A stretch of 24,000 nt of DNA from Roseobacter sp. MED193 (lineage in GTDB: Bacteria > Pseudomonadota > Alphaproteobacteria > Rhodobacterales > Rhodobacteraceae): positions 717,343 through 741,342 of the forward strand of contig NZ_CH902583.1 of assembly GCF_000152965.1 (NCBI RefSeq), read 5' to 3'. Made by a program: the position numbers and the translations under genes. The notes below the pieces were generated by a model. The model was not told where the DNA came from. It saw only the letters and a program-made list of their open reading frames with translations, and made no database searches. Of the stretch, positions 10,611-24,000 are shown one piece after another (position 1 is the first letter of the stretch; each line of letters begins with the position of its first letter).

Positions 10611-11889
10611 AACGCAGCGCCTCCACCGGGTTCAGCCGCGCGGCACGCCGGGCGGGGAAAATTGTCACCACAAAGGAAAGCCCCAGCGACAGCCCAACGG
10701 CTGACAGAACATCCGGCAGGTTCAACTCAGCCGGCAGCGCATAGATCCCCCGGATCGAGGGGTCCCAGACGCCGCCGCCCATCACAAAGTTCACAAAGGA
10801 AAAGATCGGATCAATATAGGTGGCAAAGAGACAGCCCAGAACCACGCCAAACAGCGTGCCCAAGACGCCAGTAAAGGCACCGCAGATGAAAAAGACCCGC
10901 ATCACCGATCCCTCGCTCAGCCCGATTGTGCGTAAGATACCAATATCGCGACCTTTGTTTTTCACCAGCATGATCAGGCCGGAAACGATATTCATCGTCG
11001 CAATCAGCACCAGGATCGACAGGATGATGAACATCACATTGTCCTCGACCTCCAGCGCGCGCAAAAAACCACCCGAGGCATCGCGCCAGGTCCAGACACC
11101 GACGGCGCCCCCGGCCGCGCGCAAAAGCGGCAGAACCTTCAGGTCCACCCCTTCTGGGTCTTCGATCATCACCTCGATCTCATCCGCAACGCCTTCGCGG
11201 TTAAAAAAGCTCTGAGCCTCACCAAAGGGCATGTAAAGGCGGGTCCGGTCGATGTCATAGCGCCCGGCAGTAAAGATGTAGACCACCTCATAGGCTTTGA
11301 CTCTGGGGCTGGTGCCAAAGGGGGTTTTGACGCCATTGGGCGAAATCAGCTTGATGCGATCGCCAACGCTGACCCCCAGCTCTCGCGCCACGCCGGAGCC
11401 AATGGCAACGCCCTCTTGGAAAAGGTCCAGATCGCCGATGGCACCATCACTTTGTGCCACGCCTGGGATCGTCATGATGCCAGCCTTGGCAATGCCAAAG
11501 ACCTCAACACCGGCGTTTCGCTGGCGTGCATTGGCCATGACCTGCCCCTTGACCAGCGGCGCCGCGCGGATCACGCCGGGCACCTGGGCCACGCGGGCCG
11601 CCATCTCGTCAAAATCTTTGATGTAGCGCTCAAAATGACCAGCCTCGTTCAGCTCCCCATGGGCGTAGAGCGTCACATGGGCGTTAGCGCCCAGAATGGT
11701 GCCGACGAACTCTGAACGAAACCCCGAGCGCACCGCCAGCGTGGCAATGAGCGCAAATACCGCCAGCGTAATGCCGATGAGGCTGATCCAGGTCATAACA
11801 GACACGCCGCCCTCGGCCCGTCGCGCCCGCAGGTATCGCCAGGCAATCATCCATTCAAATCGCGCAAACGGCGGGGGGGTGCTGGCCAT
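10603..11889 (-). CDS. lolC: lipoprotein-releasing ABC transporter permease (LolC/E family)
   Basis: 428-aa MacB/FtsX-type topology: N-terminal TM, large periplasmic domain and three C-terminal TMs, ending '[16 protein letters not shown]'. It is coupled to lolD. Confidence 0.82.
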
Positions 11890-12076
11890 GATGGCTCCTG
11901 CTCACAGTTTTTTCGCCAAACTGGGCTTTCCAGCGCGCAGGGTCAAGCCACCGGACGCTTTGGCAGCTCTGTGACGCGCCCTACCCGCACCGGATCAGCA
12001 AAAGACCGCTGCCCAGCCTTGGCCCGGCTCACCTGCGCTGCCACGCCCGACATATTTTGGGGAACCCCGCCACAAG

Positions 12077-12109
12077 TGACCCAGCAGGTTTGCACAAAAC
12101 GCTGGGTCA
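12077..12109. promoter_or_regulatory. 9-bp perfect inverted repeat in the lolC/OYE divergent intergenic region
   Basis: 'tgacccagc' at 12077-12085 is the reverse complement of 'gctgggtca' at 12101-12109, with a 15-nt spacer. Confidence 0.3.
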
Positions 12110-12159
12110 TTCGCGGTTTGACCTCAAGTAAAACCTTTCTCGATCCCGGGGACTGCTAT

Positions 12160-12174
12160 TTGATGCAGCATCAA
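12160..12174. promoter_or_regulatory. 15-nt perfect palindrome TTGATGCaGCATCAA, candidate operator upstream of the OYE gene
   Basis: Read directly. It ends 55 nt before the ATG at 12230. The half-sites TTGAT/ATCAA resemble CRP/FNR-family boxes, but the spacing is N5 rather than the canonical N4. Confidence 0.35.
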
Positions 12175-12229
12175 GACTGTGGCGCTCAACGCCAGCCCAC
12201 CCCGATATTGAACAAAAAAGGATGCCCCA

Positions 12230-13339
12230 ATGGACCGTGCCGAGACCCTGTTTACCCCTGTCGACCTAGGCAAACTCAGCGTCAAGAACCGAATTGCAAT
12301 GGCGCCGATGACCCGGACTTATTCGCCAGGAAACATCCCTAACGAGGCTGTGGTATCCTACTATCAGCGCCGTGCAGAAGGAGGCGTTGGGCTGATCATC
12401 ACCGAAGGTACCTTTGTCAACCACGAGGCCGCCAGCGGCTATCCGAATGTCCCCGCATTTTATGGCAAGGAGGCGCTTGCAGGATGGAAAAAGGTCGTCG
12501 ATGCGGTTCATGCCGCTGGGGGTAAGATTGCACCACAACTGTGGCATGTCGGGGCTATTCGTCGCCCCGGTATCATGCCAGGCGGCGACACACCCGGTCA
12601 CAGCCCAAGCGGTATGGCCAAGCCGGGCAAGGTGACGGGTCATGCCATGACGCAGGACGACATCGACAATGTCGTGGCTGCCTTTGCCCAGGCCGCTGCC
12701 GACGCCAAGGAAATCGGCTTTGACGCGATAGAGCTGCATGGCGCCCATGGTTATCTGATCGACCAGTTTTTCTGGGAAGGCACCAACCAGCGCACCGACG
12801 GTTATGGCGGAGATCTGGCACAACGCTCTCGCTTTGCACTGGAAATCGTCCGCGCCGTCCGCGCCGCCGTCGGCGACGACTTCCCGATTATCTTCCGTTT
12901 CTCCCAATGGAAGCAGCAGGACTATTCTGTGCGGCTTTGTGAGACACCCGAGGCCCTGCAGGCTTTCCTCACGCCATTGGCAGAGGCTGGGGTTGATATC
13001 TTCCACTGTTCCACCCGCCGCTTTTGGGAACCGGAGTTTGAAGGGAGCGATTTGAACCTGGCAGGCTGGGCGCGCAAACTGACTGGCAAGCCCACAATCA
13101 CCGTCGGCAGCGTCGGACTGAATGCCGATTTCCTGCCCGAAGATGGCACCGCAGATTTCAAAGCAGCTGAACCCGCCAGCCTGGACCGTCTGATTGAGCG
13201 GGCTGAGCGCAATGAGTTCGACCTTGTGGCCGTGGGCCGTGCCCTGATTGCCAATCCCGACTGGGCCAACCAGGTGGCGGAGGGCCAAACTGAAGGGCTG
13301 GTCGCCTTTGAGAAAAAAATGCTGCACGAGCTGCGCTGA
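12230..13339 (+). CDS. NADH:flavin oxidoreductase, Old Yellow Enzyme family
   Basis: 369-aa ORF. 'LKNRIAMAPMTR', 'GVGLIITEGT', 'QLWHVG' and 'GFDAIELHGAHGYLIDQF' are hallmark OYE/NemA-like motifs. Confidence 0.85.
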   Translation: MDRAETLFTPVDLGKLSVKNRIAMAPMTRTYSPGNIPNEAVVSYYQRRAEGGVGLIITEGTFVNHEAASGYPNVPAFYGKEALAGWKKVVDAVHAAGGKIAPQLWHVGAIRRPGIMPGGDTPGHSPSGMAKPGKVTGHAMTQDDIDNVVAAFAQAAADAKEIGFDAIELHGAHGYLIDQFFWEGTNQRTDGYGGDLAQRSRFALEIVRAVRAAVGDDFPIIFRFSQWKQQDYSVRLCETPEALQAFLTPLAEAGVDIFHCSTRRFWEPEFEGSDLNLAGWARKLTGKPTITVGSVGLNADFLPEDGTADFKAAEPASLDRLIERAERNEFDLVAVGRALIANPDWANQVAEGQTEGLVAFEKKMLHELR

Positions 13340-13371
13340 GGTAAACTCAGCCTCCAGGCACCCTCATTGGG

Positions 13372-13401
13372 TTACCAACCAGCGCATCCTTTGGTTGGTA
13401 A
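13372..13401. other. 10-bp perfect hairpin between the OYE stop and the IS end
   Basis: 'ttaccaacca' at 13372-13381 pairs with 'tggttggtaa' at 13392-13401, with a 10-nt loop. It is AT-rich with no T-tract, so a terminator function is uncertain. Confidence 0.3.
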
Positions 13402-13410
13402 TGCCAGAAC

Positions 13411-13900
13411 TGAGCCTCCCCAACTGGACTGGTCCACCGCTATGTTTAGAAGACGGAGGACCAAGAATGGCAATCAAGCGACCGAAGCCCGAAGCCCGAA
13501 GCCCGAAGAGATTGTCTCGAAGTTACGACAGGTTGAAGTTTTGATGGGGCAAGGCATGCCCCGCCTGGATGCGATCAGACAGATCGGTGTCGTTGAGTAA
13601 ACCTATTATCGCTGGCGCAAGCAATATGGGGCAATGGGCGTGGATCAATTGAAGGAACTGAAGCGGCTCCAGAGGGAGAATGACCGTCTGAGGCGAGCTG
13701 TGTCGGATCTGACCTTGGACAAGCTGATCCTGACTGAGGCCGCAAAGGGAAACTACTAAGCCCCGCTCGTCGTCGCGCCTGCATCGATCATGTGCGCAGC
13801 CAGTTCAAAGTGTCTGAGCGCAGGGCCTGCCGCGTGCTGGGACAACACCGTTCCACACAAAGGCACATCCCGAGAGGCCGTGTCGATGAAGATCGTTTGT
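13411..13900 (+). mobile_element. IS3-family insertion sequence remnant (left end, orfA, first ~50 codons of orfB)
   Basis: The IRL-like terminus 'TGAGCCTCCCCAACTGG' starts at 13411. orfA encodes '...EEIVSKLRQVEVLMGQGMPRLDAIRQIGVVE*TYYRWRKQYGAMGVDQLKELKRLQRENDRLRRAVSDLTLDKLILTEAAKGNY'. The -1 frame continues 'LLSPARRRACIDHVRSQFKVSERRACRVLGQHRSTQRHIPRGRVDEDRL', and the similarity then stops near 13900. No right end is present. Confidence 0.8.
13467..13759 (+). pseudogene. IS3-family orfA (HTH transposase subunit), disrupted
   Basis: ATG at 13467 follows GGAGGA. A 14-nt expansion of the 7-nt unit 'gaagccc' (13484-13508) shifts the frame. There is an in-frame TAA at 13598-13600 where homologues, from memory, have Gln ('GVSEQTYYRWR'). 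Confidence 0.75.
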
Positions 13901-13930
13901 ACCCCGATGGCCAACGGCCATGCACGGCAA

Positions 13931-13964
13931 CGCCGTCACTCCAAGCAACGCGGGAGTGACGGCG
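13931..13964. other. 12-bp perfect GC-rich hairpin
   Basis: 'cgccgtcactcc' at 13931-13942 pairs with 'ggagtgacggcg' at 13953-13964, with a 10-nt loop. It lies just beyond the IS truncation point. Confidence 0.4.
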
Positions 13965-14108
13965 CTTGGTTTGCCATGCTCACCAGCGTTCTTGAGAGAA
14001 AATGACGAGTGACGGGCAAATGACAGCCCAAACTGAGAAGATCCCCCCATCATTTTTGATCATTTCATCGAAAGAGTTGAGCGCGTCCATTATGATCGCG
14101 ACCGAACC

Positions 14109-14135: not shown

Positions 14136-14429
14136 CGAACCATCATACGCATTTCAAAAGGAGACACTGCATGATCACTGATCATCTTAAACCGCCGTGA
14201 GCGGTCTATTCACGAATATTCGGAAGACACACCGAAACCGCTGCACATCGCAGCACACAACCTGAAATCCCGCCTAAGGGCGTATTTCCGCCCATTGGGG
14301 CAACAGACATGAACGCCAAGGGCGCATATCTGTCTGGGCCAATTCCCGCTGTTGCGGACCGTCCAGCCTGAGGGCTGCCGGTTGGCCATCAACACTAAAC
14401 AATAATTGAAACAACAGAAAGAAAAGGAG

Positions 14430-15323
14430 ATGGATAATCTCACTATGGACTTGGTGCATCTCACCAAGCGTAACCGTGATGGTAGTTCTGGGACGCAGAA
14501 GAACCGCCAACGGGGGCTGACCGCGATGGCGGCAGAACTGAAGCACCTGGGCTACACGCTGAAAACAGCCCGCTCGATCAAGCCAAAGCATATCAACGCC
14601 CTGGTTGAACACTGGCGGGATACGGGGCTTACCAAAGCCACTATTCGCAACCGCATGAGCTGGCTTAGATGGTGGGCACAAAAGGTGGACAAGATCTCGA
14701 TCCTGGACAAGGACAACGCCACATATGAGTTGAACGACGACCGAACAGAGCGCACCAATATCGCGTTTAGTCTGCATCCAGATCAATTGAATGCGCTGAC
14801 AGATCGGCATGTTCAAGCGGCTGTTATGCTACAAGCTGCTTTTGGTCTTCGCCGGCAAGAGGCCATGAAGATCATCCCGAAAGACGCGATCAAGGCTGAC
14901 AGCCTGAAACTCAAAGGAAGTTGGACCAAAGGCGGGCGTCCGCGCACTATTCCGATCACGTCACAGCATCAACGTGTGGTGTTGTTGGCTATTCGTCAGA
15001 TCGTTGAGGATGGCAGTCTGGTCCCAACAGAACGCAGCTATGCCCAGCACATGCGAATTTATGAACGCCAAGTGCACAAGGCGGGCATCGCCCGCGCTCA
15101 CGGCCTGCGTCACAAATACGCGCAAGCTCGTTGTGAAAAGCTTACAGGCATGAAGTGCCCCATCAACGGCGGTCCTGATCGCTCTTTAATGTCAGAGGAT
15201 CAATACGAACTGGATCGCCAAGCTCGCCAAAGGATCTCCAAAGAGCTGGGTCACAACCGAATTGAAATCACAGATGTCTATCTGGGGCGTCTGCAACAGG
15301 GAGGTGCCGTGTCATGTTCGTGA
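14430..15323 (+). CDS. tyrosine site-specific recombinase (plasmid/phage 'integrase' family without classical SAM-like N-domain)
   Basis: The catalytic signature is read directly: 'AFGLRRQEA' (Arg), 'AHGLRHKYA' (HxxR) and 'LGHNRIEITDVYLGR' (His...Tyr). The start is ambiguous between TTG 14406, ATG 14430 and ATG 14445. AAGGAG lies at 14424-14429. Confidence 0.8.
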   Translation: MDNLTMDLVHLTKRNRDGSSGTQKNRQRGLTAMAAELKHLGYTLKTARSIKPKHINALVEHWRDTGLTKATIRNRMSWLRWWAQKVDKISILDKDNATYELNDDRTERTNIAFSLHPDQLNALTDRHVQAAVMLQAAFGLRRQEAMKIIPKDAIKADSLKLKGSWTKGGRPRTIPITSQHQRVVLLAIRQIVEDGSLVPTERSYAQHMRIYERQVHKAGIARAHGLRHKYAQARCEKLTGMKCPINGGPDRSLMSEDQYELDRQARQRISKELGHNRIEITDVYLGRLQQGGAVSCS

Positions 15324-15424
15324 GCTTGTTCATCATTCTAGGAGAAGTGATCTGGCTGATTGCGATTGGGCTTCAATCCGTCCTGCATGGGCTGGCCGTG
15401 CTGATCAATAAGCTGATCCGATGA
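15314..15424 (+). CDS. possible 36-aa hydrophobic peptide (not in ORF track)
   Basis: ATG at 15314 lies about 10 nt after GGGAGG (15298-15303) and overlaps the recombinase stop. Translation by hand gives 'MFVSLFIILGEVIWLIAIGLQSVLHGLAVLINKLIR*', a single TM-like helix with a basic tail. Confidence 0.3.
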   Translation: MFVSLFIILGEVIWLIAIGLQSVLHGLAVLINKLIR

Positions 15425-15520
15425 AGGGGCTATCATCTATAGGTTGCATTTTGTATGAAGGAACTACCCTGGGGCTTTCCTTGGGGCATCGCGATGCTCC
15501 TCACCATGAGGAGTATTGTG

Positions 15521-15709
15521 ATGAAAATGTTGAGCAGACGGCAGGTGACTGAACTGGTTCTGCACTCACCGCAACACGTTGCACGTTTGGAAGCGGCAGG
15601 CCGTCTCCCTGTAAGGGTAAAGCTGGGCCACAACCGCGTGGGGTGGGTTGAGGATGAAGTCTTGGACTGGCTTCAACAGCGCATCAATGTCCGCAATCAA
15701 CAACACTAA
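15521..15709 (+). CDS. AlpA-family HTH regulator/excisionase-like protein (62 aa)
   Basis: ATG at 15521 follows GAGGAG (15508-15513). 'LSRRQVTELVLHSPQHVARLEAAGRLPVRVKLGHNRVGWVEDEVLDWL' fits the AlpA/Phage_AlpA pattern (HTH, then 'FP.p.klg.r.v.W...ev..W'). Confidence 0.75.
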   Translation: MKMLSRRQVTELVLHSPQHVARLEAAGRLPVRVKLGHNRVGWVEDEVLDWLQQRINVRNQQH

Positions 15710-15726
15710 CTCTCCTTGGCGAGAGC

Positions 15727-15758
15727 GAGGGCTGGCCGAGAGGCCAGTCCTCTTTTTT
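15727..15758 (+). terminator. rho-independent terminator after the AlpA-like gene
   Basis: An 11-bp stem pairs 15727-15737 with 15742-15752 (one G-U) around a GAGA tetraloop. It is followed by TTTTTT at 15753-15758. Confidence 0.65.
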
Positions 15759-16122
15759 AACTGATGCGCGGGACGGACGAGGCGATAAACTATTACCAAC
15801 CCCAGGCTGGCCTGGGGCTAATATGACGCGAACAGCCCGTAGCGAACCTTCAGCACTAGACCAGCATATGGCGGCGCGGCCCGCCATTATGGCCATTCGT
15901 ACAGGTCGCGGCATTTTTTCCTGCTGAAATGTTAGATTTTCGGACTTTGTTAACGTTCGAAATACTCCGCCGCTTGTAGTCCCGTGAGACGACAGAACCC
16001 TTTCTTCCATTTTGAACTGAGATTAGTGTTACTATCTTACGGTACATAATTACAAATTAGATTGGATATTTCGCTAAATTGATTTATGGAACCCACAGAC
16101 TTTCGACACGGAACTTAAAGAT

Positions 16123-16872
16123 ATGCTAACAAAGAATTCCACGTTGATTTTTAACTATTTTGATGAGGGTCGGCGCTTGATGAGGGAACACCTAGAAAGC
16201 GATCCGTATGAGAGCCTCAAGCAGAACGTTTATTCGGCGTCTTTTTTATCGCTACTCGAACACACATTGACGCCGATGATGAGTGAGCGGCGTATTAGAG
16301 TGTGGCATTATACCCATCTCTTAAATGACGAGATTGCATCGATGCAAAGAAGGCTGGTTCCCTCTTCACTAATCGGACTCGAGCAGCGGCTTGAATCACT
16401 AATAAATAGAAGGGTAATTTCAAAACAAGAAGCACAGATCATATACGATCAGAGTCCATTTCACCAACAAGGGGGCTTACGGTCCAATCGGGTCTACACA
16501 ACTACGGTTCCTTTTTCACCGGAGTATCCGGGCGTTGTACCTCTTCTGCAGAGCTGGGGCGGAGAGTCGGCCTATTTTTGGCTGTCCGACGAAGTTATTG
16601 CAGCGAAATTGAAAACTATCGGGACGCCACGTATTGTGGAAATCGAAACGGCACTAGAGGATGAGATGAACGCGTATTCTTCCGCGAGGACGGCCACCGA
16701 AGCATGGGCTAGAACTCTCGACGTAGCCGTGGAAGTTTTGAGTAGTGATCTTGCAATCATTGATTGCTTGGATACAGCCAAAGTTCTGCGTGTACATACA
16801 GCGGGCGATGGTGTTTTCGAAAAATTAGCTGCAAGTTACCCATCTGAATATAAGTCACAATTCACCAATTGA
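16123..16872 (+). CDS. orphan hypothetical protein (249 aa), low GC
   Basis: Clean ORF at about 45% GC in a roughly 60% GC genome, with an AT-rich upstream region. No family recognised. The spaced motifs 'RVWHYTHLLN' (H62/T64), 'RVYTTTVPF' (Y125) and 'IVEIET' (E173/E175) are noted under findings. Confidence 0.6.
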   Translation: MLTKNSTLIFNYFDEGRRLMREHLESDPYESLKQNVYSASFLSLLEHTLTPMMSERRIRVWHYTHLLNDEIASMQRRLVPSSLIGLEQRLESLINRRVISKQEAQIIYDQSPFHQQGGLRSNRVYTTTVPFSPEYPGVVPLLQSWGGESAYFWLSDEVIAAKLKTIGTPRIVEIETALEDEMNAYSSARTATEAWARTLDVAVEVLSSDLAIIDCLDTAKVLRVHTAGDGVFEKLAASYPSEYKSQFTN

Positions 16873-17139
16873 TGCCCAGACATTGATATTCATGTTGGGC
16901 TCTGATCTGCCTTGAGGTGGTGCAGCGAGTGTTTCCCCTTCTTTTAAGTCTTTTGGTTTGGCCTTTGTACCATTTTGTAGAAAATTAGCTATGCGAACTT
17001 AGATATACTCACGTTAGAGCGGAAAAACTCGGGTGTTGAGCAAAGCCCTGCGGCAAGGTCTTTTTGTGATAGAGGCAGGCCGCAGTCTGGTAGGCTTGTA
17101 TGAAGGGAGGGCTGACTTGACCTGGATTATACATCAATT

Positions 17140-17178
17140 TCAGAAAGAAAAACGCGAAATCAACCTGGACTGAGGTTG
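17140..17178 (-). terminator. possible terminator of the HNH gene
   Basis: A 'caacct'/'aggttg' hairpin at 17161-17178 lies 3 nt after the stop on the minus strand. A T-rich tract ('cgtttttctttc') follows after an 8-nt gap. Confidence 0.3.
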
Positions 17179-17181
17179 TCC

Positions 17182-18267
17182 TCAAAATACCAAGAAGGCA
17201 AGTATAAGCGCAAGAACTATAAAGCTAATAATTGTGGAGAAAGGTCCACCACCTTCAGGTTGAGGGGGTTTTCCTTGCTCTAGTCTCTTAAAAATATGTC
17301 TTACTCTCGACTGCCAATTTTCAGGAAGTTCAAAATTTATTGTTCTGCTAATGGTCAGTGGTTCTTTGGAGCCAGATTCTTCATGCCTTATTGCTTCTTC
17401 CAGGGCGTCATTCAGAGTTTTTGGGATGCTGGCCAACTTTAATGCTTGCGAACCAAGCTGACCAGCAGCAACCGATTTGCATTCTTCGTACTCATCTGAG
17501 ACAATCGTAGATCTCACGCGCTCTTCGTGCGCAACAATCTGATCTAGCCAGTGAGACAATAGTTGGCAGGTGTGATGGATTTCCTCAATGTTACCTTCTT
17601 CTCCGCGATCACCCCAGCTTGAACTTAACCGGTCAAGCAGCTTTGAAGCTGGTTCTACCATCGCTAACATTTCTCGAATTCGTTGATCTAACCATGCTAG
17701 TAAGTCGTCGTCAGAAATGTGCTCGCCAACCGTATTGTACATTCCATCTTCAAGGTCTCTTAGTTTTCGAAAACTTGATTTGGTAAGGTATTGAAACAGT
17801 TCAGCCGTCAAGCGATATTCCCATCCTTGAGGCTTGTCGCGAACAATGCGTTTTATGATGGCTGGGTATTCTGCAAATTCATCAATAGCATTATCATCAA
17901 TCTCTGCTTGAATGCGATCACTTTCGCTGCCGAGTTCCTTTAAAGTGATTTCCTCCCGCTTCTCTCTCCACGCATATAAAAGTTCAGTGGAGTATAGGCT
18001 TTCATCGGCGTCAACTTTACGATGGCAATTTCGGCACAGCCAAATACCATTAGTAATCGCAGACCGCGCAAGGTTTGTTTGCGTGCCATCGTATCGAGGA
18101 GCGCTAGGGCGAGCCCCTGAAATATGAGCGGCCTCTCCAATGATGGTAGCTTTTTCGGAAGAGGAGTTTGGTCCAACCGTGCTCACACCGCAATCAATAT
18201 TTGAACATCGATAGCCAGCTCTTTTTGCTAACGTGTCTACAGTTTTCTTTGGAAAATCTGGGCTCAT
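17182..18267 (-). CDS. HNH endonuclease-domain protein with unknown helical domain and C-terminal membrane anchor (361 aa)
   Basis: The N-terminus has the HNH zinc-finger pattern C21-x4-C26 ... 'GEAAHI' (H48) ... 'NGIWLCRNCHRKVD' (N73, C78, C81, H82). An uncharacterised helical region of roughly 200 aa follows. The last 20 residues, 'PFSTIISFIVLALILAFLVF', are hydrophobic. The start is placed at ATG 18267, because the ORF-track extension to 18426 overlaps the neighbouring remnant and looks non-coding. The SD is weak. Confidence 0.7.
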   Translation of the reverse strand: MSPDFPKKTVDTLAKRAGYRCSNIDCGVSTVGPNSSSEKATIIGEAAHISGARPSAPRYDGTQTNLARSAITNGIWLCRNCHRKVDADESLYSTELLYAWREKREEITLKELGSESDRIQAEIDDNAIDEFAEYPAIIKRIVRDKPQGWEYRLTAELFQYLTKSSFRKLRDLEDGMYNTVGEHISDDDLLAWLDQRIREMLAMVEPASKLLDRLSSSWGDRGEEGNIEEIHHTCQLLSHWLDQIVAHEERVRSTIVSDEYEECKSVAAGQLGSQALKLASIPKTLNDALEEAIRHEESGSKEPLTISRTINFELPENWQSRVRHIFKRLEQGKPPQPEGGGPFSTIISFIVLALILAFLVF

Positions 18268-18319
18268 AGATGACGTCTTTTTGAACTTTTTCTTTACAGC
18301 TATTGACAAGTTTCCTTCT

Positions 18320-18751
18320 TCATTGATCAGGAAACAAACCCGGCATCCAGCGTCCAGCAAGAGATGCAGAAAAAACGAGCCTGAGTGGCGCACGTGTGCT
18401 GTCAGATGCAATGGCTCCTGTTTCAATCAGAGCGCCGGTCACTCTTCGGGCCGCACGGTCGCTGACACCTAGTATGCCGGGAATGTTGGATCTAGGAACA
18501 GTACCATTGTAGAGCAGTTCCCGTAGGACTAGGTCAGATTTTGACGGAAGTCTGCCCAAGCGCATTTCTTCTTCAGCCCACATTAATATGCGTTCTCGTA
18601 GAGCATCTGGTTTCATGAGTGTCGCCATGAAATCCACTTGGTCGATGCACACCCCAAGGAAAAACTCTACAAATGAGGCGAGAGCGCTTTCGCTAAGTGT
18701 ACCCCTATTGCTCTTTTCTGAACATAGGTACTCGCTTCGAAACTCAGCGAT
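18320..18751 (-). pseudogene. 5'-truncated remnant resembling the C-terminal wHTH region of Fic/DOC-family proteins
   Basis: The open frame extends upstream of the called GTG to a stop at 18752-18754. It reads 'IAEFRSEYLCSEKSNRGTLSESALASFVEFFLGVCIDQVDFMATLMKPDALRERILMWAEEEMRLGRLP...RAARRVTGALIETGAI...PLRLVFSASLAGRWMPGLFP'. This matches my memory of Fic-protein C-termini ('...FFL.VC.DQV.FM...P.L..RI...R.ARR.L..L...G.L...P..L.FP......W.PGLFP'). No Fic core 'HPFxxGNGR' is present. Confidence 0.45.
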
Positions 18752-18822
18752 TTACGAGACTAAAAAGAGACTAAATCCGCTGTTGGGCTTGCTCATTTCC
18801 TCATAAGTGCTTGATTTTGTTT

Positions 18823-18867
18823 GGAGGCGAGTACCGGAATCGAACCGGTGTACACGGATTTGCAATT
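18823..18867 (-). other. 3' half of tRNA-Cys(GCA) with no 5' half; putative attachment-site scar
   Basis: The minus strand reads 'aTTGCAAATCCGTGTACACCGGTTCGATTCCGGTACTCGCCTCCA'. That gives an anticodon loop uuGCAaa, an anticodon 3' stem, a T-arm ACCGG-TTCGATT-CCGGT, an acceptor 3' strand, discriminator U and an encoded CCA. It is close to E. coli tRNA-Cys as I recall it ('GGAUUGCAAAUCCGU...CCGGUUCGA.UCCGG'). Upstream sequence ('ttttaaga') cannot form the anticodon stem, D-arm or the acceptor 5' strand 'GGCGAGT'. Confidence 0.8.
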
Positions 18868-18993
18868 CTTAAAATCTTGTTTCCTGTGGGTTCCTGCGCT
18901 TTCAAAATCGTTTGAAACCATTGACTTATGAATTTTCAGGAATCAGGGTGAAGTCGTGTCTACAACTAAAAACGCCACCAAACCGCCACCAAA

Positions 18994-20097
18994 ATGCAAG
19001 CAAAACTCACAGAAACATATATCACCAAACTGAAGCACAAATCAGAACGGTATGATGTTCGCGACACGGTCGAGCGGGGCTTAGTGCTACGCGTCGGCAA
19101 GAAATTCGGCGCGAAACATTGGCATACGTTTGTTTATCGCGGATCAAAACGCCGAATGGTTCGCTTGGGATTATTCCCGCATATGTCGGTGCGTGATGCA
19201 CGCATGGCAGCCATCCAAGCCAAAGCGAATGCGAACGCTCCTTGGACACCTGAGCACATCAAAACGGTGGCTGATCTGTTCGAAGAGTATCGAAAAGCAC
19301 GAGAGCCAAAAATGCGCGCATGGCGTGACGTTCAATCCGCTTGGGATGTCTGGGGGGAGGAGTTCTTAGGTTATCTGAAATTGACCGATGTTTCGATCCA
19401 TCATGGGCGTGAACTACGCAATCATGTTTCAAAGAAATCGACTGAGCTGCGCGGGAGTGCCGTAATTAGATACATTCGACCTATGTTTTCATGGGCGGTT
19501 GATGAAAGTCTGATCGATGAAAATCCTTGGGCAGGATTGAAGGCTACGGCGATTGCCACACCGCGTGATCGAGTGTTGACGAATGAAGAATGGCAAAAGG
19601 TATGGGGTGCCACGTTTAAGGATAACCTCGGGGCGTATTTCAGGTTTCTGATGTTATCGGCGCAGCGCAAAGACAATGTTGCCAGCATGAAATGGGATGA
19701 GATTCAGGGCAATCTTTGGACGATCCCCGCTGAAAAATTCAAAGCGACAAAGAAGGAGAGCGCAAAAGCCCACGAGGTGCCGCTGACACCTGCGTTAATG
19801 GAGATTTTGGAAAATCAGCCCAAACGAGGGCCGTTTGTGTTTGGGCCAACCGGTTTAAAGCAGCTGCGACTCGGTTCACGTGAAAAGGACCGCTTGGCAA
19901 AGAAGGCAGGTGTAGATGACTGGCGGCTTCATGATTTGCGCCGAACCGCTGCAACGAGGATGACGGAGAACAAAATCCCAAGATTCATCGTTGAGCGCGT
20001 TCTTGGCCACGCGGACCGAAGCGTTACTGCGGTCTATGATCGGGCAAATTACAGAGAAGAAAAGAGGCAGGCATTAAACGAATTATCGAAAAACTGA
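18994..20097 (+). CDS. int: tyrosine integrase, P4-like (DUF4102-type N-terminus)
   Basis: 367-aa ORF. The N-terminus 'KLTETYITKLKHKSERYDVRDTVERGLVLRVGKKFGAKHW' fits the P4-integrase arm-binding domain pattern. The catalytic residues are 'SAQRKDNV' (Arg), 'LHDLRRTAATRM' (HxxR) and 'VLGHADRSVTAVYDRANY' (His...Tyr). It lies 126 nt from the tRNA-Cys fragment. Confidence 0.9.
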   Translation: MQAKLTETYITKLKHKSERYDVRDTVERGLVLRVGKKFGAKHWHTFVYRGSKRRMVRLGLFPHMSVRDARMAAIQAKANANAPWTPEHIKTVADLFEEYRKAREPKMRAWRDVQSAWDVWGEEFLGYLKLTDVSIHHGRELRNHVSKKSTELRGSAVIRYIRPMFSWAVDESLIDENPWAGLKATAIATPRDRVLTNEEWQKVWGATFKDNLGAYFRFLMLSAQRKDNVASMKWDEIQGNLWTIPAEKFKATKKESAKAHEVPLTPALMEILENQPKRGPFVFGPTGLKQLRLGSREKDRLAKKAGVDDWRLHDLRRTAATRMTENKIPRFIVERVLGHADRSVTAVYDRANYREEKRQALNELSKN

Positions 20098-20132
20098 ACG
20101 CAAGAGTTGCACCCGTTCATTGGCTGAATGCT

Positions 20133-20909
20133 GTGAACTATTTTATTGATCAGAATCTTGGGAGTGATGTGTATTCAAACAGGGGCGACTTTTCTTTTGA
20201 TGGGCCAGTCGTTGAACCTGAGATGGATGCTTTCGATGCGCAAAATCGAGTTGTGGCCATCGCGGATCACTACACGGCGATCATAAATTCGAGCGAAACT
20301 GTTCTTTTCTATCTTTGCTTTGACCTGTCTATCGGAATCGTTAAGCGAAAGACTGGGTATGCGATGGATCCGATTTGGGCCAACGGCGTCTATGAAGCAG
20401 CGAAAGTCGATTTCAAAGTGTACACGCGTTTGGCTGAAGTGGTCAGTGAAAACCTCACCTTGAATGTTGCAGTTCCAGCAAAATTGAGAGTTTTCGCTGG
20501 CGAGGTAATGTCAGGGATGTTTCCGGTTCCTAACAAACAGGGGCCAGCGATTACACGAGACAAATTGCGCAACTTGGCAATCTTTGAGAGCGTAGATTTC
20601 CTATGTGAGAAGTTGGGGATGCAATTTGAATCGGACGCGAAGGAAACGTGCCCGAATGCGACCGCTTTGGTGTCTGACGGTTTTTCCCATGTCGAATATG
20701 TGAATAGCAGCTTGGGCAAGCCGACGCCCAGCGTCATCAAGCGCATCTGGAAAAGAGAACACCGCGCGCAAATGCGCTATGAGGTGTCAATGCTGCGATG
20801 GCTTGAAAATAAAGAGAAATCAAACAGGTGGTATAAAAAATTCGGATTTATGTTCTGGATGAACAGAAATCTCCAAAATCTAAACACATGCGTTTCCCGG
20901 CAACGCTAA
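20133..20909 (+). CDS. orphan hypothetical protein (up to 258 aa)
   Basis: Clean low-GC ORF directly downstream of int. The called start at 20133 is a GTG without an SD. Alternatives are GTG 20169 (after GGGAG) and ATG 20223. No motif recognised. Confidence 0.5.
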   Translation: MNYFIDQNLGSDVYSNRGDFSFDGPVVEPEMDAFDAQNRVVAIADHYTAIINSSETVLFYLCFDLSIGIVKRKTGYAMDPIWANGVYEAAKVDFKVYTRLAEVVSENLTLNVAVPAKLRVFAGEVMSGMFPVPNKQGPAITRDKLRNLAIFESVDFLCEKLGMQFESDAKETCPNATALVSDGFSHVEYVNSSLGKPTPSVIKRIWKREHRAQMRYEVSMLRWLENKEKSNRWYKKFGFMFWMNRNLQNLNTCVSRQR

Positions 20910-20948
20910 TCATTCTGAGTGCATGCAGATGAATCACAGGAGTCAGCG

Positions 20949-21164
20949 ATGCATGCAGAAGAAACACAGAATGACGAGTTGCAGGAGTACTACCGCGCCG
21001 CAGAGGCCGCCGCCTATCTGAAGATATCCGAAAGCCAACTTTCCAAGTTGCGGATGCAGAAAAACCGCGCACGTGGTCCTAAGTTTGCCAATATCGCAGG
21101 TTGCATCCTGTATCGGCGCGTAGATTTGGATGCTTGGATCCTGTCGAAGATCGTTTCTGCATAG
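20949..21164 (+). CDS. excisionase-family/MerR-like HTH DNA-binding protein (71 aa)
   Basis: ATG at 20949 lies 7 nt after AGGAG (20937-20941). 'YYRAAEAAAYLKISESQLSKLRMQKNRARGPKFANIAGCILYRRVDLDAWI' fits the HTH_17/excisionase pattern. Confidence 0.7.
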   Translation: MHAEETQNDELQEYYRAAEAAAYLKISESQLSKLRMQKNRARGPKFANIAGCILYRRVDLDAWILSKIVSA

Positions 21165-21175
21165 CGGGGGCGATC

Positions 21176-21964
21176 ATGGCAGTGAAATACTACGCACAGA
21201 TCGACTTTGATCTGTTTTCAAACCCAAAATATCGAGCGCTTTCGTCCAATGATATCCGTTACATTTATCTGGCGGCGCATTGTTCGAAACTGAGTAACTA
21301 CATTGGTCTGTTTCGCTATCCAGTAGATATTTGGAGCTACGATGCGAGTGCCAAGCCGCTAGAGATAGAGGCCGCAATTTCTGAACTTCAGCGTTGCGAC
21401 CTCATAGAATACGACTTTGAATATCAAACGCTGCGTCTGGTTGGCTGGTTCAGTTCCCTGAATGCCCCGAACAATGGCAACCAAATGAAAGGCCACATCA
21501 AGAGCTTTTCGGGTTTGCCAACATGTCCGCCAGAAATGTTTTGTCGTGCCGTGTCCGAGTTCACGGTCTCAAGTTTCAAGCAGGCGTTGTCATGGGAAGA
21601 CCTAAGCCCGGAACACAAGAAAGTTCACGATGCCTTCAGGACGTTTTTGAAGGCGCAGTTTTTCAAATACGGCGATGACTTCAATCTGATCCTGATGGAC
21701 GAGATCAACAAACGCGGCAGGGTGACATTTGGCGCGATCCAGTCCTGCTATCAGATGTTGCCGAGCGAAGGGCTGCATAGCGTGCAACCCTTTCGCAAGG
21801 GTATCGAAACCCTTTCGAAACAAGAGAAGAAAAAAGAGGAAAAAACAATAAATCAAAAAACCTTAAACGTTTCGCCGCCTCGTAATTCCAGCGTCACAGA
21901 CAAGCCAAGTTCTTCAGCCCTCAATAGCGAGATCGCCAAACAGGCGCGCAAGGAGCTGATTTGA
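21176..21964 (+). CDS. hypothetical protein, possibly replisome-organizer/replication-initiator-like (262 aa)
   Basis: ATG at 21176 follows GCGGGGG. The N-terminus 'KYYAQIDFDLFSNPKYRALSSNDIRYIYLAAHC' resembles the phage replisome-organizer N-terminal pattern ('W.kl..d.fd..K...L......iYi.Ll'). The C-terminus is Lys/Glu/Ser-rich. The functional call is weak. Confidence 0.45.
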   Translation: MAVKYYAQIDFDLFSNPKYRALSSNDIRYIYLAAHCSKLSNYIGLFRYPVDIWSYDASAKPLEIEAAISELQRCDLIEYDFEYQTLRLVGWFSSLNAPNNGNQMKGHIKSFSGLPTCPPEMFCRAVSEFTVSSFKQALSWEDLSPEHKKVHDAFRTFLKAQFFKYGDDFNLILMDEINKRGRVTFGAIQSCYQMLPSEGLHSVQPFRKGIETLSKQEKKKEEKTINQKTLNVSPPRNSSVTDKPSSSALNSEIAKQARKELI

Positions 21965-22425
21965 TGTCCGGTTCCCCGCAAAGAGCAAGGTTACCCTCCG
22001 ATTACATCGGCGGGACTTGTGAGGGGCGGCAAGCCTCCCCTTCAAACCCCAACCCGACGCGCGCAAGCGGCGTCAAAGAGGGCCTTTCCGAGAGCGTGAT
22101 CTTTCGATGCACACCGTCGGAGAAGGCAGCGCTTGTGGCCAAAGCGCGCGCCGCTGGCCTGCCCAACGCCACGCTGATGCGTGAGGCCTTGGGGCTGGCT
22201 GAGGCACGTCGGCGCAAGCCCGTCCCCCGTGTTGACCCGAAGCTGACCTTTGCGATTGCCCGCGTCGGCGGCAACCTCAATCAGCTCTCCCGCTGGATCA
22301 ACGGAGCGGTCAAATCCGGCCGCGCGAGCCAGATCGATGCGCTCAAGGTCGCGACACAACTGGTGGTCATCGAGCGGCAGATGGCGCAGATCGTGGCGGC
22401 ACACACAGGCGATAACTGCGAATGA
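21964..22425 (+). CDS. mobC: MobC/MbeC-family relaxosome accessory protein (RHH)
   Basis: 'IFRCTPSEKAALVAKARAAGLPNATLMREALGL' (RHH) and 'ARVGGNLNQLSRWIN' (MobC signature). ATG 21964 overlaps the preceding stop (TGATG). An alternative in-frame GTG at 22096 would remove a low-complexity 44-aa N-terminus. The stop overlaps the relaxase start (ATGA). Confidence 0.8.
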   Translation: MSGSPQRARLPSDYIGGTCEGRQASPSNPNPTRASGVKEGLSESVIFRCTPSEKAALVAKARAAGLPNATLMREALGLAEARRRKPVPRVDPKLTFAIARVGGNLNQLSRWINGAVKSGRASQIDALKVATQLVVIERQMAQIVAAHTGDNCE

Positions 22426-23972
22426 TAATCTCGTTCTTCTCCACCGGCACAGGCGGCGGAGCTGCACCCGTCGACTACCTGATCGCACGCGAAGTTCTTG
22501 CCTATGACGAGAACCGCAATTTGATCCGCGACGACACCAGCAAACCGCAAACCAAGATCCGCGACCCGTTGCCTGAGGTGCTGCATGGTAACCCCGACCA
22601 AACCCGCGACCTGATCGACGCGAGCACCAACAAGTGGAGCTACACGGCGGGCGTCATCAGCTTTGCCGACAGCGATGATCCCAGTCCCGACGCCCAGCAA
22701 GAGGCCATTGAGCTATTTGAGGCTCTGGCCTTTGCTGGGCTGGACAGGGACCAATACGATTGTCTCTGGGTGCGCCACTCGCATGAAGGCAACGTCGAGC
22801 TGCACTTCTGCACGCCACGCCTTGAGCTCAGCACCGGCAAGGCGTTGAACATCGCACCGCCAGGCCATGAGAGCGCCTTTTCCAGCCTCCGCGATTTGAT
22901 GAACAAGACGCACGGTTGGGCAGACCCTTTGGACCCAGAACGCGCACGGGAGGTAAGGGCGACGATTGAGGCTCCAACCCGCGCACAGGGGCGCGAGGCG
23001 CTGCACGATTGGCTCCTCGATCAGATCAGCGTCGGCACCGTTACTGACCGTGCCAGCATGATCGACGCACTCACTGACGCGGGATTCGACATCCCCCGTG
23101 CCAGTAAGAATTACATCACCGCCCAAGACCCCGACACCGGCGAGCGCTGGCGTTTGAAAGGAGAGATTTTCCATGACGACTGGCAAGCCGAACCGCCTCG
23201 CCGAGAAATTGAACGCGGACCTGGAGATAGTACGCAGCGACCACGCCGCCTTGATGGCATCTCAGCTGGAGAGCTTCAGGAGCGATTTCAGCAGCATTGC
23301 GACCAGCGCGCTGCATACAATCGAGACCGATATCAGGTTCTTTCTCAGCGACAGCAAGAGCGAATTGCAGAGGCGGAGCGAGACGCTCCGGCGCTGGCTG
23401 ACGATATCGCCTTGGGTGATCGTGGGGCTGATCTTGGCGTGGATCGCCTCGACCGTGGCGGTGAGCTGGCTCTGGATGACCTTTTTGACGCATTCGGAAC
23501 TGACGGAACTGGGTCTGACACGGATCGAACACGCGGGGCAGATTTGGCTGACGCTGGATCCCGATCAGACCGAAATGAAAACCTGCACGATGGCGGGAAC
23601 ACCGATCATCTGCATCGAAGTCAGGGGGCAGTAAATGACGACGCCACTGACAGCCTTGGAGCGCGATTTGCTCGCCTGCGTCGAGCGATTGGTGACGGCC
23701 TGCGAAACCTCAGCGCAGGAATTGCGCGCTTTGGAAGCGCGCTCGACGAACGGGATCGAGAGCAAAGTGAATGGGTTGGCGCATTGCGTGGCGCTGCTGA
23801 TGAAATCGCATCTCTTGTCGGTCGCCACATTGGCCGACTTGCTGAGAGAGGAGCAGACCTACGAGACGCTTCAAGAGGGCTTAGAGGCCAGTTTGAAATT
23901 AGCGAAACACGCCGAGCAACGGCTGAACGAGGCCTGAGTGAACAAGAACGCGGCCATAGCCTCGGCCTTTAA
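22422..23972 (+). CDS. relaxase, ColE1 MbeA-like (MOB-HEN type)
   Basis: 516 aa, against my recollection of about 517 aa for ColE1 MbeA. The N-terminus 'MIISFFSTGTGGGAAPVDYLIA' parallels MbeA 'MIVKFHARGKGGGSGPVDYLLG', with the Tyr at position 19. 'LWVRHSHEGNVELHFCTP' aligns with the MbeA H-E-N motif region. The C-terminal half is low-complexity and overlapped by two nested genes, as in ColE1. Confidence 0.88.
   Translation: MIISFFSTGTGGGAAPVDYLIAREVLAYDENRNLIRDDTSKPQTKIRDPLPEVLHGNPDQTRDLIDASTNKWSYTAGVISFADSDDPSPDAQQEAIELFEALAFAGLDRDQYDCLWVRHSHEGNVELHFCTPRLELSTGKALNIAPPGHESAFSSLRDLMNKTHGWADPLDPERAREVRATIEAPTRAQGREALHDWLLDQISVGTVTDRASMIDALTDAGFDIPRASKNYITAQDPDTGERWRLKGEIFHDDWQAEPPRREIERGPGDSTQRPRRLDGISAGELQERFQQHCDQRAAYNRDRYQVLSQRQQERIAEAERDAPALADDIALGDRGADLGVDRLDRGGELALDDLFDAFGTDGTGSDTDRTRGADLADAGSRSDRNENLHDGGNTDHLHRSQGAVNDDATDSLGARFARLRRAIGDGLRNLSAGIARFGSALDERDREQSEWVGALRGAADEIASLVGRHIGRLAERGADLRDASRGLRGQFEISETRRATAERGLSEQERGHSLGL
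23173..23634 (+). CDS. MbeB/MobB-like mobilization protein nested in the relaxase gene (+1 frame)
   Basis: 153-aa ORF in an alternate frame. AGGAG at 23159-23163 lies 9 nt before the ATG. It has a central TM helix 'ISPWVIVGLILAWIASTVAVSWLWM' and a tail 'GLTRIEHAGQIWLTLDP', consistent with the MbeB architecture as I recall it. Confidence 0.65.
   Translation: MTTGKPNRLAEKLNADLEIVRSDHAALMASQLESFRSDFSSIATSALHTIETDIRFFLSDSKSELQRRSETLRRWLTISPWVIVGLILAWIASTVAVSWLWMTFLTHSELTELGLTRIEHAGQIWLTLDPDQTEMKTCTMAGTPIICIEVRGQ
23635..23937 (+). CDS. MbeD/MobD-like protein nested in the relaxase gene (+1 frame)
   Basis: The 100-aa ORF starts at the ATG immediately after the MbeB-like TAA (TAAATG). AGGGGG at 23623-23628 lies 6 nt upstream. 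The sequence is helical and coiled-coil-like ('LERDLLACVERLVTACETSAQELRALE'). Confidence 0.55.
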   Translation: MTTPLTALERDLLACVERLVTACETSAQELRALEARSTNGIESKVNGLAHCVALLMKSHLLSVATLADLLREEQTYETLQEGLEASLKLAKHAEQRLNEA

Positions 23973-24000
23973 ATTGAAAGGAAAATATATGAACTTCCCA

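Follow-up and report, generated by a model that had tools for sequence, protein, structure and literature searches.

A probable integrative mobilizable element with a ColE1-like mobilization module in the tRNA-Cys gene of Roseobacter sp. MED193

Our analysis of a 24,000-nucleotide stretch of the genome of Roseobacter sp. MED193 (C1:717343-741342, here called the window; positions above 24000 are window coordinates extrapolated from the whole genome) finds six genes in succession on one strand, from 18994 to 23972, which form most of the left 5.2 kb of an element that is 14,484 bp long in full. In order, they encode a P4-like tyrosine integrase, a conserved protein of about 258 amino acids (aa), a small helix-turn-helix (HTH) protein, a 262-aa protein, the relaxosome accessory protein MobC and an MbeA-like relaxase, with two more genes nested inside the last. 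An earlier note on this DNA had listed these genes, all of which are indeed present at the coordinates it gave, and had read them as an integrative mobilizable element (IME) that joins a P4-type integrase to a ColE1-type mobilization module. This core reading is supported by each of the three points on which it was checked, namely a second attachment (att) site, the absence of a type IV secretion system (T4SS), and a match of the relaxase to MbeA. We therefore interpret the locus, with a probability of roughly 85%, as an "iMOB"-type IME inserted in the 3' end of the only tRNA-Cys gene of this genome. Its boundaries, gene content and conservation, described below, were obtained directly.

The integrase (367 aa, 18994..20097, plus strand) has an N-terminal Arm-DNA-bind_3 domain (PF13356, 2.3e-10, residues 5-80) and a C-terminal Phage_integrase domain (PF00589, 4.3e-16, residues 214-353), and the catalytic residues R...HxLRR...H...Y are visible in its translation. 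These two domains, together with the use of the 3' part of a tRNA gene as target, are those of a P4-type integrase. The left attachment site, attL (18822..18866, minus strand), is a displaced copy of that target, a 45-nt 3' part of tRNA-Cys(GCA) that extends from the anticodon loop to the CCA. No complete tRNA is detected within the window by ARAGORN, and a whole-genome tRNA search places the intact, single tRNA-Cys gene on the minus strand at 33306-33379, 9.3 kb past the window end; the 45-nt repeat at 33306-33350, inside that gene, is attR. The two repeats are exact, direct and 14,484 bp apart, so the second att copy and the right end of the element, which the earlier note had expected at an intact tRNA-Cys, are both located. 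Apart from these two exact copies of the att core the genome contains one degenerate copy 2.4 Mb away (C1:3195384-3195428, 96% identical over the 45 nt of the tRNA-Cys 3' part and outside any tRNA gene), which may be a trace left by an earlier integration at another place on the chromosome.

Relatives in other genera delimit the element in the same way. An assembly labelled Epibacterium ulvae (L050) carries a copy at 94-96% nucleotide identity between flanks that are both unrelated to those found here; the att core is the exact starting point of the homology, which extends 9 nt beyond the tRNA. A Litoreibacter assembly (L046) has a 9,767-bp relative with the same 45-nt att at tRNA-Cys and the same six-gene backbone but other cargo, and a Loktanella genome (L047) has the same backbone with copper-resistance cargo; in all three assemblies the backbone lies at tRNA-Cys. 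The Litoreibacter and Loktanella integrases each share 88% identity with the one studied here, while the corresponding values are 80% and 40% for MobC and 56% and 45% for the relaxase. The locus thus has what an IME should have for its own integration, a site-specific recombinase and att repeats at a specific target, with boundaries that are backed by L050 and L046. In a survey of one genome from each of 300 other genera of the family, close homologues of the integrase were found in only three, and the relaxase in none of those three genomes.

Three congeners carry partial 44-nt tRNA-Cys repeats, whose distance from the intact gene is about 5.5 kb in G309, 45 kb in G310 and 5.8 kb in G312, so tRNA-Cys is an integration hot spot used repeatedly within the genus, for inserts of very different sizes. 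Insertions of roughly 5 to 45 kb that partial repeats delimit at this gene in several congeners, and the second integrase and low-GC block (0.41-0.49) that directly abut attL, could be taken to mean that the element and its left neighbour are a tandem array that moves, or is mobilised, as a composite island (accretion or cis-mobilisation) in which 18822 is an internal junction. We consider this very improbable, since the window contains no third att core even when three mismatches are allowed, in L050 there is no left block and the att core is exactly where the element begins, and the Litoreibacter element is self-contained as well. The block itself (14406-18822), in which defence-like genes reach as far as 18822, includes an integrase gene (14406-15323, Phage_int_SAM_2 and Integrase_1), a match to the Rfam Ruegeria trans44 small RNA (15487-15752) and an HNH-type nuclease gene (17182-18426) matched by PADLOC effector/PDC-M68A models. 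It looks like a separate neighbouring island, and is not bounded by a third tRNA-Cys repeat.

The right half of the portion inside the window is the mobilization module. The mobC gene (22096..22425, plus strand) encodes a ribbon-helix-helix/NikA-like protein of 109 aa if translated from a GTG codon; its open reading frame (ORF) extends upstream to a TTG at 21961, and the Pfam matches (NikA-like, 2.4e-10; MobC, 6.2e-5) both begin at residue 44 of this longer frame. The GTG at 22096 is the probable start, because the 44-codon N-terminal extension would contain the putative origin of transfer (oriT) and the proteins of relatives are annotated as 105-106 aa long. The predicted oriT core (22016..22046, minus strand) is an imperfect GC-rich inverted repeat followed by TCACAAG. 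This motif has a single match in the window, where none is expected by chance. Another 21 relaxase loci have it too, as do the Paracoccus plasmids pMARC2 and pAES4, each time upstream of mobC and on the strand opposite to it, and it is shared by all relatives examined; its counterpart in the two plasmids is their own predicted oriT (Maj et al. 2013, PMC3832669).

The relaxase gene (22422..23972, plus strand, 516 aa) has relax_MbeA_E1 as its sole NCBIfam match (3.3e-43, residues 1-339). Its Y19, in the sequence GxGGGxxPVDYL, aligns with the tyrosine of ColE1-type, Neisseria and Paracoccus relaxases, as is expected for motif I of MbeA. The HEN residues of MbeA itself are H97, E104 and N106. Motif III of the window relaxase (WVRHSHEGNVELHF) has H119...E126-x-H128, with a histidine at the position of the asparagine, so the strict HEN signature is replaced by H-E-H. 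The motif ends in ELNF in the ColE1-type and Neisseria sequences and in ELHF in those of pMARC2, pAES4, Zymomonas, Crocosphaera and all of the roseobacter relatives, and H-E-H also occurs in the relaxase of a 3.7-kb E. coli RepL plasmid. In an unrooted maximum-likelihood tree of 20 relaxases the H-E-H group is split from a ColE1/Neisseria/Acinetobacter/Campylobacter group with support of 100/99; the tree includes no MOBP1 or MOBQ outgroups and so is consistent with a position of the H-E-H group inside or beside MOBP5. The window relaxase belongs to a distinct and well supported roseobacter subclade, seemingly confined to the roseobacter/Paracoccaceae genomes sampled, that adjoins a pMARC2/pAES4/Loktanella subclade. 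The relaxases of pMARC2 and pAES4 have been published as MOBP5/HEN (PMC3832669), and "ColE1-type" is therefore a fair description of the module. The assignment of the relaxase to MbeA/MOB-HEN in the earlier note thus holds in so far as MbeA is its only family-level match and its nearest characterised relatives are MOBP5/HEN, but H-E-H and the sister clade place it next to the ColE1 proteins rather than among them.

The same note had thought such a module unusual in an alphaproteobacterial chromosome, and this was overstated: MOBP5/HEN modules are known from alphaproteobacterial plasmids, and homologues of the window relaxase are present in 35 of the 300 genera surveyed, in several cases on contigs that range in size from hundreds of kb to over 1 Mb. 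Two records in PLSDB that carry this relaxase lineage, from Ruegeria conchae and Neotabrizicola, are typed as "non-mobilizable" by MOB-suite.

The C-terminal half of the relaxase gene contains two further genes in its +1 frame, both on the plus strand. Nested gene 1 (23173..23634, 153 aa, with one predicted transmembrane helix) is the positional analogue of mbeB/mobB and nested gene 2 (23635..23937, 100 aa, helical) that of mbeD/mobD; the two are coupled as TAAATG, and there is an AGGAG 9 nt upstream of the first and a GGGGG ahead of the second. Comparison of 20 related loci, whose relaxases are as little as 54% identical, shows the first frame open and starting at the same ATG in every locus, with the conserved motifs WLTISP and GLT+I in its product, and the second (99-104 aa, its ATG directly after the preceding stop) open in 19. 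Pairwise differences at relaxase codon positions 1, 2 and 3 are 0.146, 0.131 and 0.396 in the non-overlapped N-terminal domain, as opposed to 0.278, 0.202 and 0.215 in the first overlap and 0.325, 0.228 and 0.184 in the second, and in both overlaps the most variable site is the third position of the nested frame. The openness of the frames across loci and this codon periodicity, which give a direct view of selection on the nested genes, indicate that they are real and more constrained than the C-terminal half of the relaxase, and rule out chance frames in GC-rich DNA.

In profile-profile comparison (hhalign) the nested products match the corresponding ORFs of pMARC2 (gene 1, probability 93.8%, E = 1.8e-7; gene 2, 80%, E = 1.4e-5). 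Against MbeB and MbeD the probabilities are 0.2% and 1.8%, and neither protein has a Pfam or NCBIfam match, so homology to MbeB and MbeD is unsupported and what remains is the analogy of position and the homology to the pMARC2 proteins. The complete nested architecture described in the earlier note is thus real as a layout, and is under selection, but its proteins have no detectable homology to MbeB/MbeD. By analogy with those proteins of ColE1, the two nested products, one of them membrane-anchored, probably play accessory or exclusion roles. In three relatives (L011, L019 and L022) the relaxase frame has premature stops, at codons 242, 345 and 439, respectively, and the first nested ORF is open in all three; the stop in L011 lies just before the nested genes and would leave a relaxase-domain-only protein followed by small genes that are no longer overlapped.

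The mobilization genes differ from the rest of the backbone in base composition. The GC fraction is 0.50 in the integrase gene, 0.465 in the gene for the 258-aa protein, 0.516 in the HTH gene and 0.477 in the gene for the 262-aa protein, and then 0.648 in mobC and 0.593 in the relaxase gene; in 500-nt windows it rises from 0.498 to 0.640 at 22000 (the chromosome has 0.571). The mosaic composition reported in the earlier note is thus real as a GC step, but it does not mark a recent chimera: it recurs in all three elements compared, among them those of Litoreibacter and Loktanella, which belong to other genera, and so is an old property of the family of elements.

Sharing of the module between elements is seen directly. 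The genome contains a second IME (about C1:2512814-2527949, 15,089 bp, with perfect 47-nt repeats at tRNA-Arg(CCT)), whose tyrosine integrase is unrelated and which also has HTH, HNH and MarR genes, a replication-initiator-like gene (orf332), and a metabolic cargo of TRAP transporter, hydantoinase/oxoprolinase and glutamate dehydrogenase genes. The two elements have in common a block made up of oriT, mobC, and the relaxase gene with its nested genes (21978..23937, plus strand, corresponding to C1:2524873-2526866). Identity within the block is 96.6% for the oriT region, 96.0% for mobC, 89.7% for the relaxase N-terminal domain, and 84.4% and 81.2% for the nested genes, and it drops abruptly to 43-46% just outside on both sides. 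The Loktanella element, in turn, combines its 88%-identical integrase with a relaxase from the pMARC2 subclade, and the same cassette lineage is present on a 16.6-kb integrase-less Neotabrizicola plasmid. Because one cassette is found with unrelated integrases and on an integrase-less plasmid, it is best viewed as a module that moves among different backbones, and from these sequences it behaves as an exchangeable unit shared by IMEs and plasmids of roseobacter-group bacteria.

Between the two att sites there is no T4SS or type IV coupling protein (T4CP) domain in any ORF, according to profile scans of all ORFs. The earlier note had seen no such genes in its part, and none lies farther to the right, where the element carries a type I restriction-modification (R-M) system, a PrrC homologue and an insertion sequence (IS) up to attR. 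The locus is thus not an ICE (integrative and conjugative element). A phage satellite or P4-like prophage is likewise ruled out, by the absence of capsid, packaging and primase genes and by the relaxase module. Candidates for the missing functions are present elsewhere in the cell: two other replicons, C2 (123 kb) and C3 (167 kb), carry VirD4-type genes (298 and 288 bits, respectively), and both also carry VirB4-type genes. The only other VirD4 trace is a VirD4-like fragment of just 173 aa at another place on C1. With no T4SS or T4CP of its own and with VirD4 and VirB4 on C2 and C3, the element has the gene set of a relaxase-encoding IME with candidate helpers.

The cargo half begins at 23938 (23938..24000, plus strand, in the window) and continues past the window to attR. 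Genome sequence beyond the window shows a small ORF (23938-24276), a second HTH_17 gene (24319-24657), hsdM (24654-26198), hsdS (26195-27382), the PrrC homologue (27383-30028, or 11383-14028 of locus L001) and hsdR (30021-33122). The type Ic R-M system EcoprrI of the prr locus has the PrrC anticodon nuclease encoded between hsdS and hsdR. The order hsdM-hsdS-prrC-hsdR is the same here, but unlike that of the prr locus the prrC gene is split: a 1.26-kb IS3-family element (1,257 bp, at about 27802-29058), of which the genome has six identical copies, lies within it. The PADLOC PrrC model matches both fragments (2.8e-44 and 3.3e-86), which share a reading frame modulo 3, and the L050 copy is without the IS and encodes an intact 461-aa PrrC homologue. 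The locus is thus Prr-type in gene order but has no intact PrrC, and this arm of the defence is presumably inactive here. The two copies, elsewhere 94-96% identical, diverge in the hsdS region (L001 10779-11323 versus L050 15590-15625), and the gene caller reports a 715-aa HsdM-Methylase_S product in L050, which suggests that the R-M cargo has had its specificity domains swapped or has undergone a fusion.

Several observations weigh against a mobile IME and have to be set beside the evidence above. The IS in prrC implies that the element has been resident long enough for its cargo to be damaged. No empty tRNA-Cys site with matching flanks was found in the five congener genomes checked, a comparison that was fruitless because in these genomes the left flank of the core is not syntenic with tRNA-Cys. 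The relax_MbeA_E1 score of the relaxase is 148.5 bits against an equivalog cut-off of 500 bits, and its Pfam Relaxase score of 23.7 bits is marginally below the threshold of 24.6. The oriT is recognised by likeness to that of pMARC2 and pAES4, itself a prediction, and its hairpin is no more stable than shuffled sequence (z = -1.17). Finally, the link to a helper consists in the co-occurrence of C2 and C3 in the same cell.

The first of these points would also fit an element that arrived as an IME but is now a fixed, immobile remnant, retained for its R-M cargo while int and mob decay. The split of prrC by an IS with six identical genomic copies agrees with this, and the premature relaxase stops in L011, L019 and L022 demonstrate that decay does happen in the family. 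In the present element, however, the att copies are identical over all 45 nt; the integrase, Xis-like, MobC and relaxase genes and both nested ORFs are intact; the 94-96% identical copy with other flanks in L050 implies recent movement; and the relaxase N-terminal domain and nested genes are under purifying selection across relatives. We therefore regard a fixed remnant as improbable and retain the interpretation as a mobilizable IME.

Three backbone genes lie between integrase and mobilization module. The gene for the 258-aa protein (20133..20909, plus strand) occupies the same position in L046, L047 and L050; its product is 69% identical to that of the Litoreibacter and 51% to that of the Loktanella element, and it has no matches in Pfam, NCBIfam, PHROGs or PADLOC. 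The next gene (20919..21164, plus strand, 81 aa, called as a 71-aa product in relatives) encodes an HTH_17 (AlpA/Xis-like) DNA-binding protein (Pfam HTH_17, 2.8e-7) that also matches PHROG 66, "excisionase and transcriptional regulator" (8.3e-6), and is a candidate excisionase or regulator. The third (21176..21964, plus strand) is open from 21101, and its probable start is at 21176 because its homologues, every one annotated as hypothetical, are all 262 aa long. The earlier note called its product "replisome-organizer-like", and we find no confirmation of this label: the protein has no sequence match in Pfam, NCBIfam or PDB, and the fold matches have non-significant E-values. In its AlphaFold2 model (pLDDT 79) only the first 88 residues or so, a winged helix, resemble the N-terminal domains of RepA_N initiators (4pta and 4pql, both with probability 1.0 but E about 0.1; TMt 0.51 and rmsd 2.9 for 4pta); the Foldseek E values are 0.1-0.4, and winged HTH domains of MarR proteins and methyltransferases score similarly.

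This protein is central to another possible view of the element, as an integrative plasmid whose excised circle replicates autonomously with the 262-aa winged-helix protein as initiator, so that plasmid and integrated states would alternate and the circle would be more than a passing intermediate of transfer. In related elements the same slot, directly upstream of oriT-mobC, is indeed occupied by clearly Rep-like genes, orf332 in the tRNA-Arg IME (PHROG "replication initiation protein", 3.1e-36) and, both in Ruegeria conchae and on the Neotabrizicola plasmid of 16.6 kb, a gene for an HTH_36 protein, and the modelled N-terminal domain does superpose on RepA_N N-terminal domains such as 4pta. 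Winged helices are ubiquitous, however, the E values are those just given, and BLASTP finds no similarity between the 262-aa protein and the Rep-like proteins in the same slot of other elements; iterons or an origin were not seen either, although no search aimed at them was made. With the PDB sequence search also negative, homology to those genes is not supported, and the fold search is at most suggestive, for the N-terminal winged HTH domain. We thus think it possible from the model that the protein is a replication or maintenance initiator, but that the element is an integrative plasmid seems to us unlikely, and the interpretation as an IME is preferred.

From this gene content we infer excision, the nicking site, which helper is used and what the nested and orphan proteins do, and the following cycle may be proposed. 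The P4-like integrase, probably aided by the HTH_17 Xis-like protein, would recombine the two 45-nt att copies to give a circle. MobC and the MbeA-like HUH relaxase would then assemble on the oriT just upstream of mobC, where Tyr19 would nick one strand. The relaxase-DNA complex would be passed to the coupling protein and T4SS of a helper, for which C2 and C3, both found in this cell, are candidates, and in the recipient the integrase would re-insert the circle into tRNA-Cys. Judging from its genes, the element thus most likely borrows the conjugation pore of a plasmid to spread its restriction/defence cargo.

The closest characterised relatives of the mobilization module are pMARC2 and pAES4 (PMC3832669), whose relaxase is about 38% identical over more than 80% of its length. 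They have the H-x-H...E-x-H motif, the predicted oriT core, which likewise lies upstream of mobC and on the other strand, the same layout of mobC and relaxase with two nested genes, homologous nested ORFs, and hosts of the same order, Rhodobacterales, but are 5.8-kb autonomous plasmids without an integrase. The ColE1-type region of the E. coli plasmid pO26_3 (NC_013363.1) is built in the same way, with mobC followed by a relaxase gene in which MbeB and MbeD are nested; the end of mobC lies a few bases inside the relaxase start and the nested pair begins about 230-250 codons in. The relaxases are also of similar length (516 aa here, and there a 533-aa maximal ORF, or about 517 aa from the aligned start), and the tyrosine at position 19 and the histidine and glutamate of motif III are conserved. 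On the other hand, relaxase-domain identity is about 33%, the signature there is H-E-N and not H-E-H, the two fall in separate clades (100/99), and that region belongs to a small replicon, whereas the module described here follows a tyrosine integrase gene in a chromosomally integrated element.

As a kind of element, the one described here parallels NBU1, NBU2 and Tn4555 of Bacteroides, the canonical IMEs, which consist of a tyrosine integrase, a MobP relaxase and an oriT and have no T4SS (PMC5704250). Like them, it has its own integrase, relaxase and (predicted) oriT, no pore or coupling protein, and a design that depends on a helper; unlike them, it is known from sequence alone, and its proteins are unrelated and come from another phylum. 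A 2017 review stated that no IME of the canonical relaxase-only type had then been described in Proteobacteria (PMC5704250), and according to a 2026 preprint relaxase-encoding IMEs are about as abundant as ICEs. Among the papers searched we found none that combines IME, Rhodobacteraceae and relaxase. The family of elements is apparently without a name so far, while elements of this kind are already known.

Elsewhere in the window, a stretch of about 170-180 bp at about 13410-13590, downstream of an FMN-oxidoreductase gene, has many dispersed matches (about 75-89% identity) in the congeners G305 and G308, which suggests a small multicopy repeat of the type of miniature inverted-repeat transposable elements (MITEs) or repetitive extragenic palindromes (REPs).

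The element is of a fairly ordinary kind and does not overturn current understanding, but it is a clean and fully delimited relaxase-encoding IME in an alphaproteobacterium, and few such elements have been described individually outside the Bacteroidetes and Firmicutes. Its ColE1-like mobilization cassette, with two overprinted genes that are often missed by annotation, circulates between islands and plasmids of the roseobacter group, and the islands concerned ferry defence cargo, a type I R-M/PrrC system here, as well as copper resistance in Loktanella. Given the "non-mobilizable" labels of two related records, such elements are probably more mobile in marine genomes than is assumed. We would tentatively, and at somewhat less than even odds, go further and propose that these elements are an unnamed, genus-crossing tRNA-Cys IME family of marine roseobacters, with an integrase about 88% identical across Epibacterium, Litoreibacter and Loktanella, whose relaxases form an "H-E-H" sister lineage of ColE1 MbeA with its own overprinted gene pair, swapped as a cassette between IMEs with different integrases and small plasmids and missed by plasmid typing. 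If this is true, a sizeable share of the defence and metal-resistance islands of these abundant marine bacteria would be conjugatively mobilizable and unrecognised as such.

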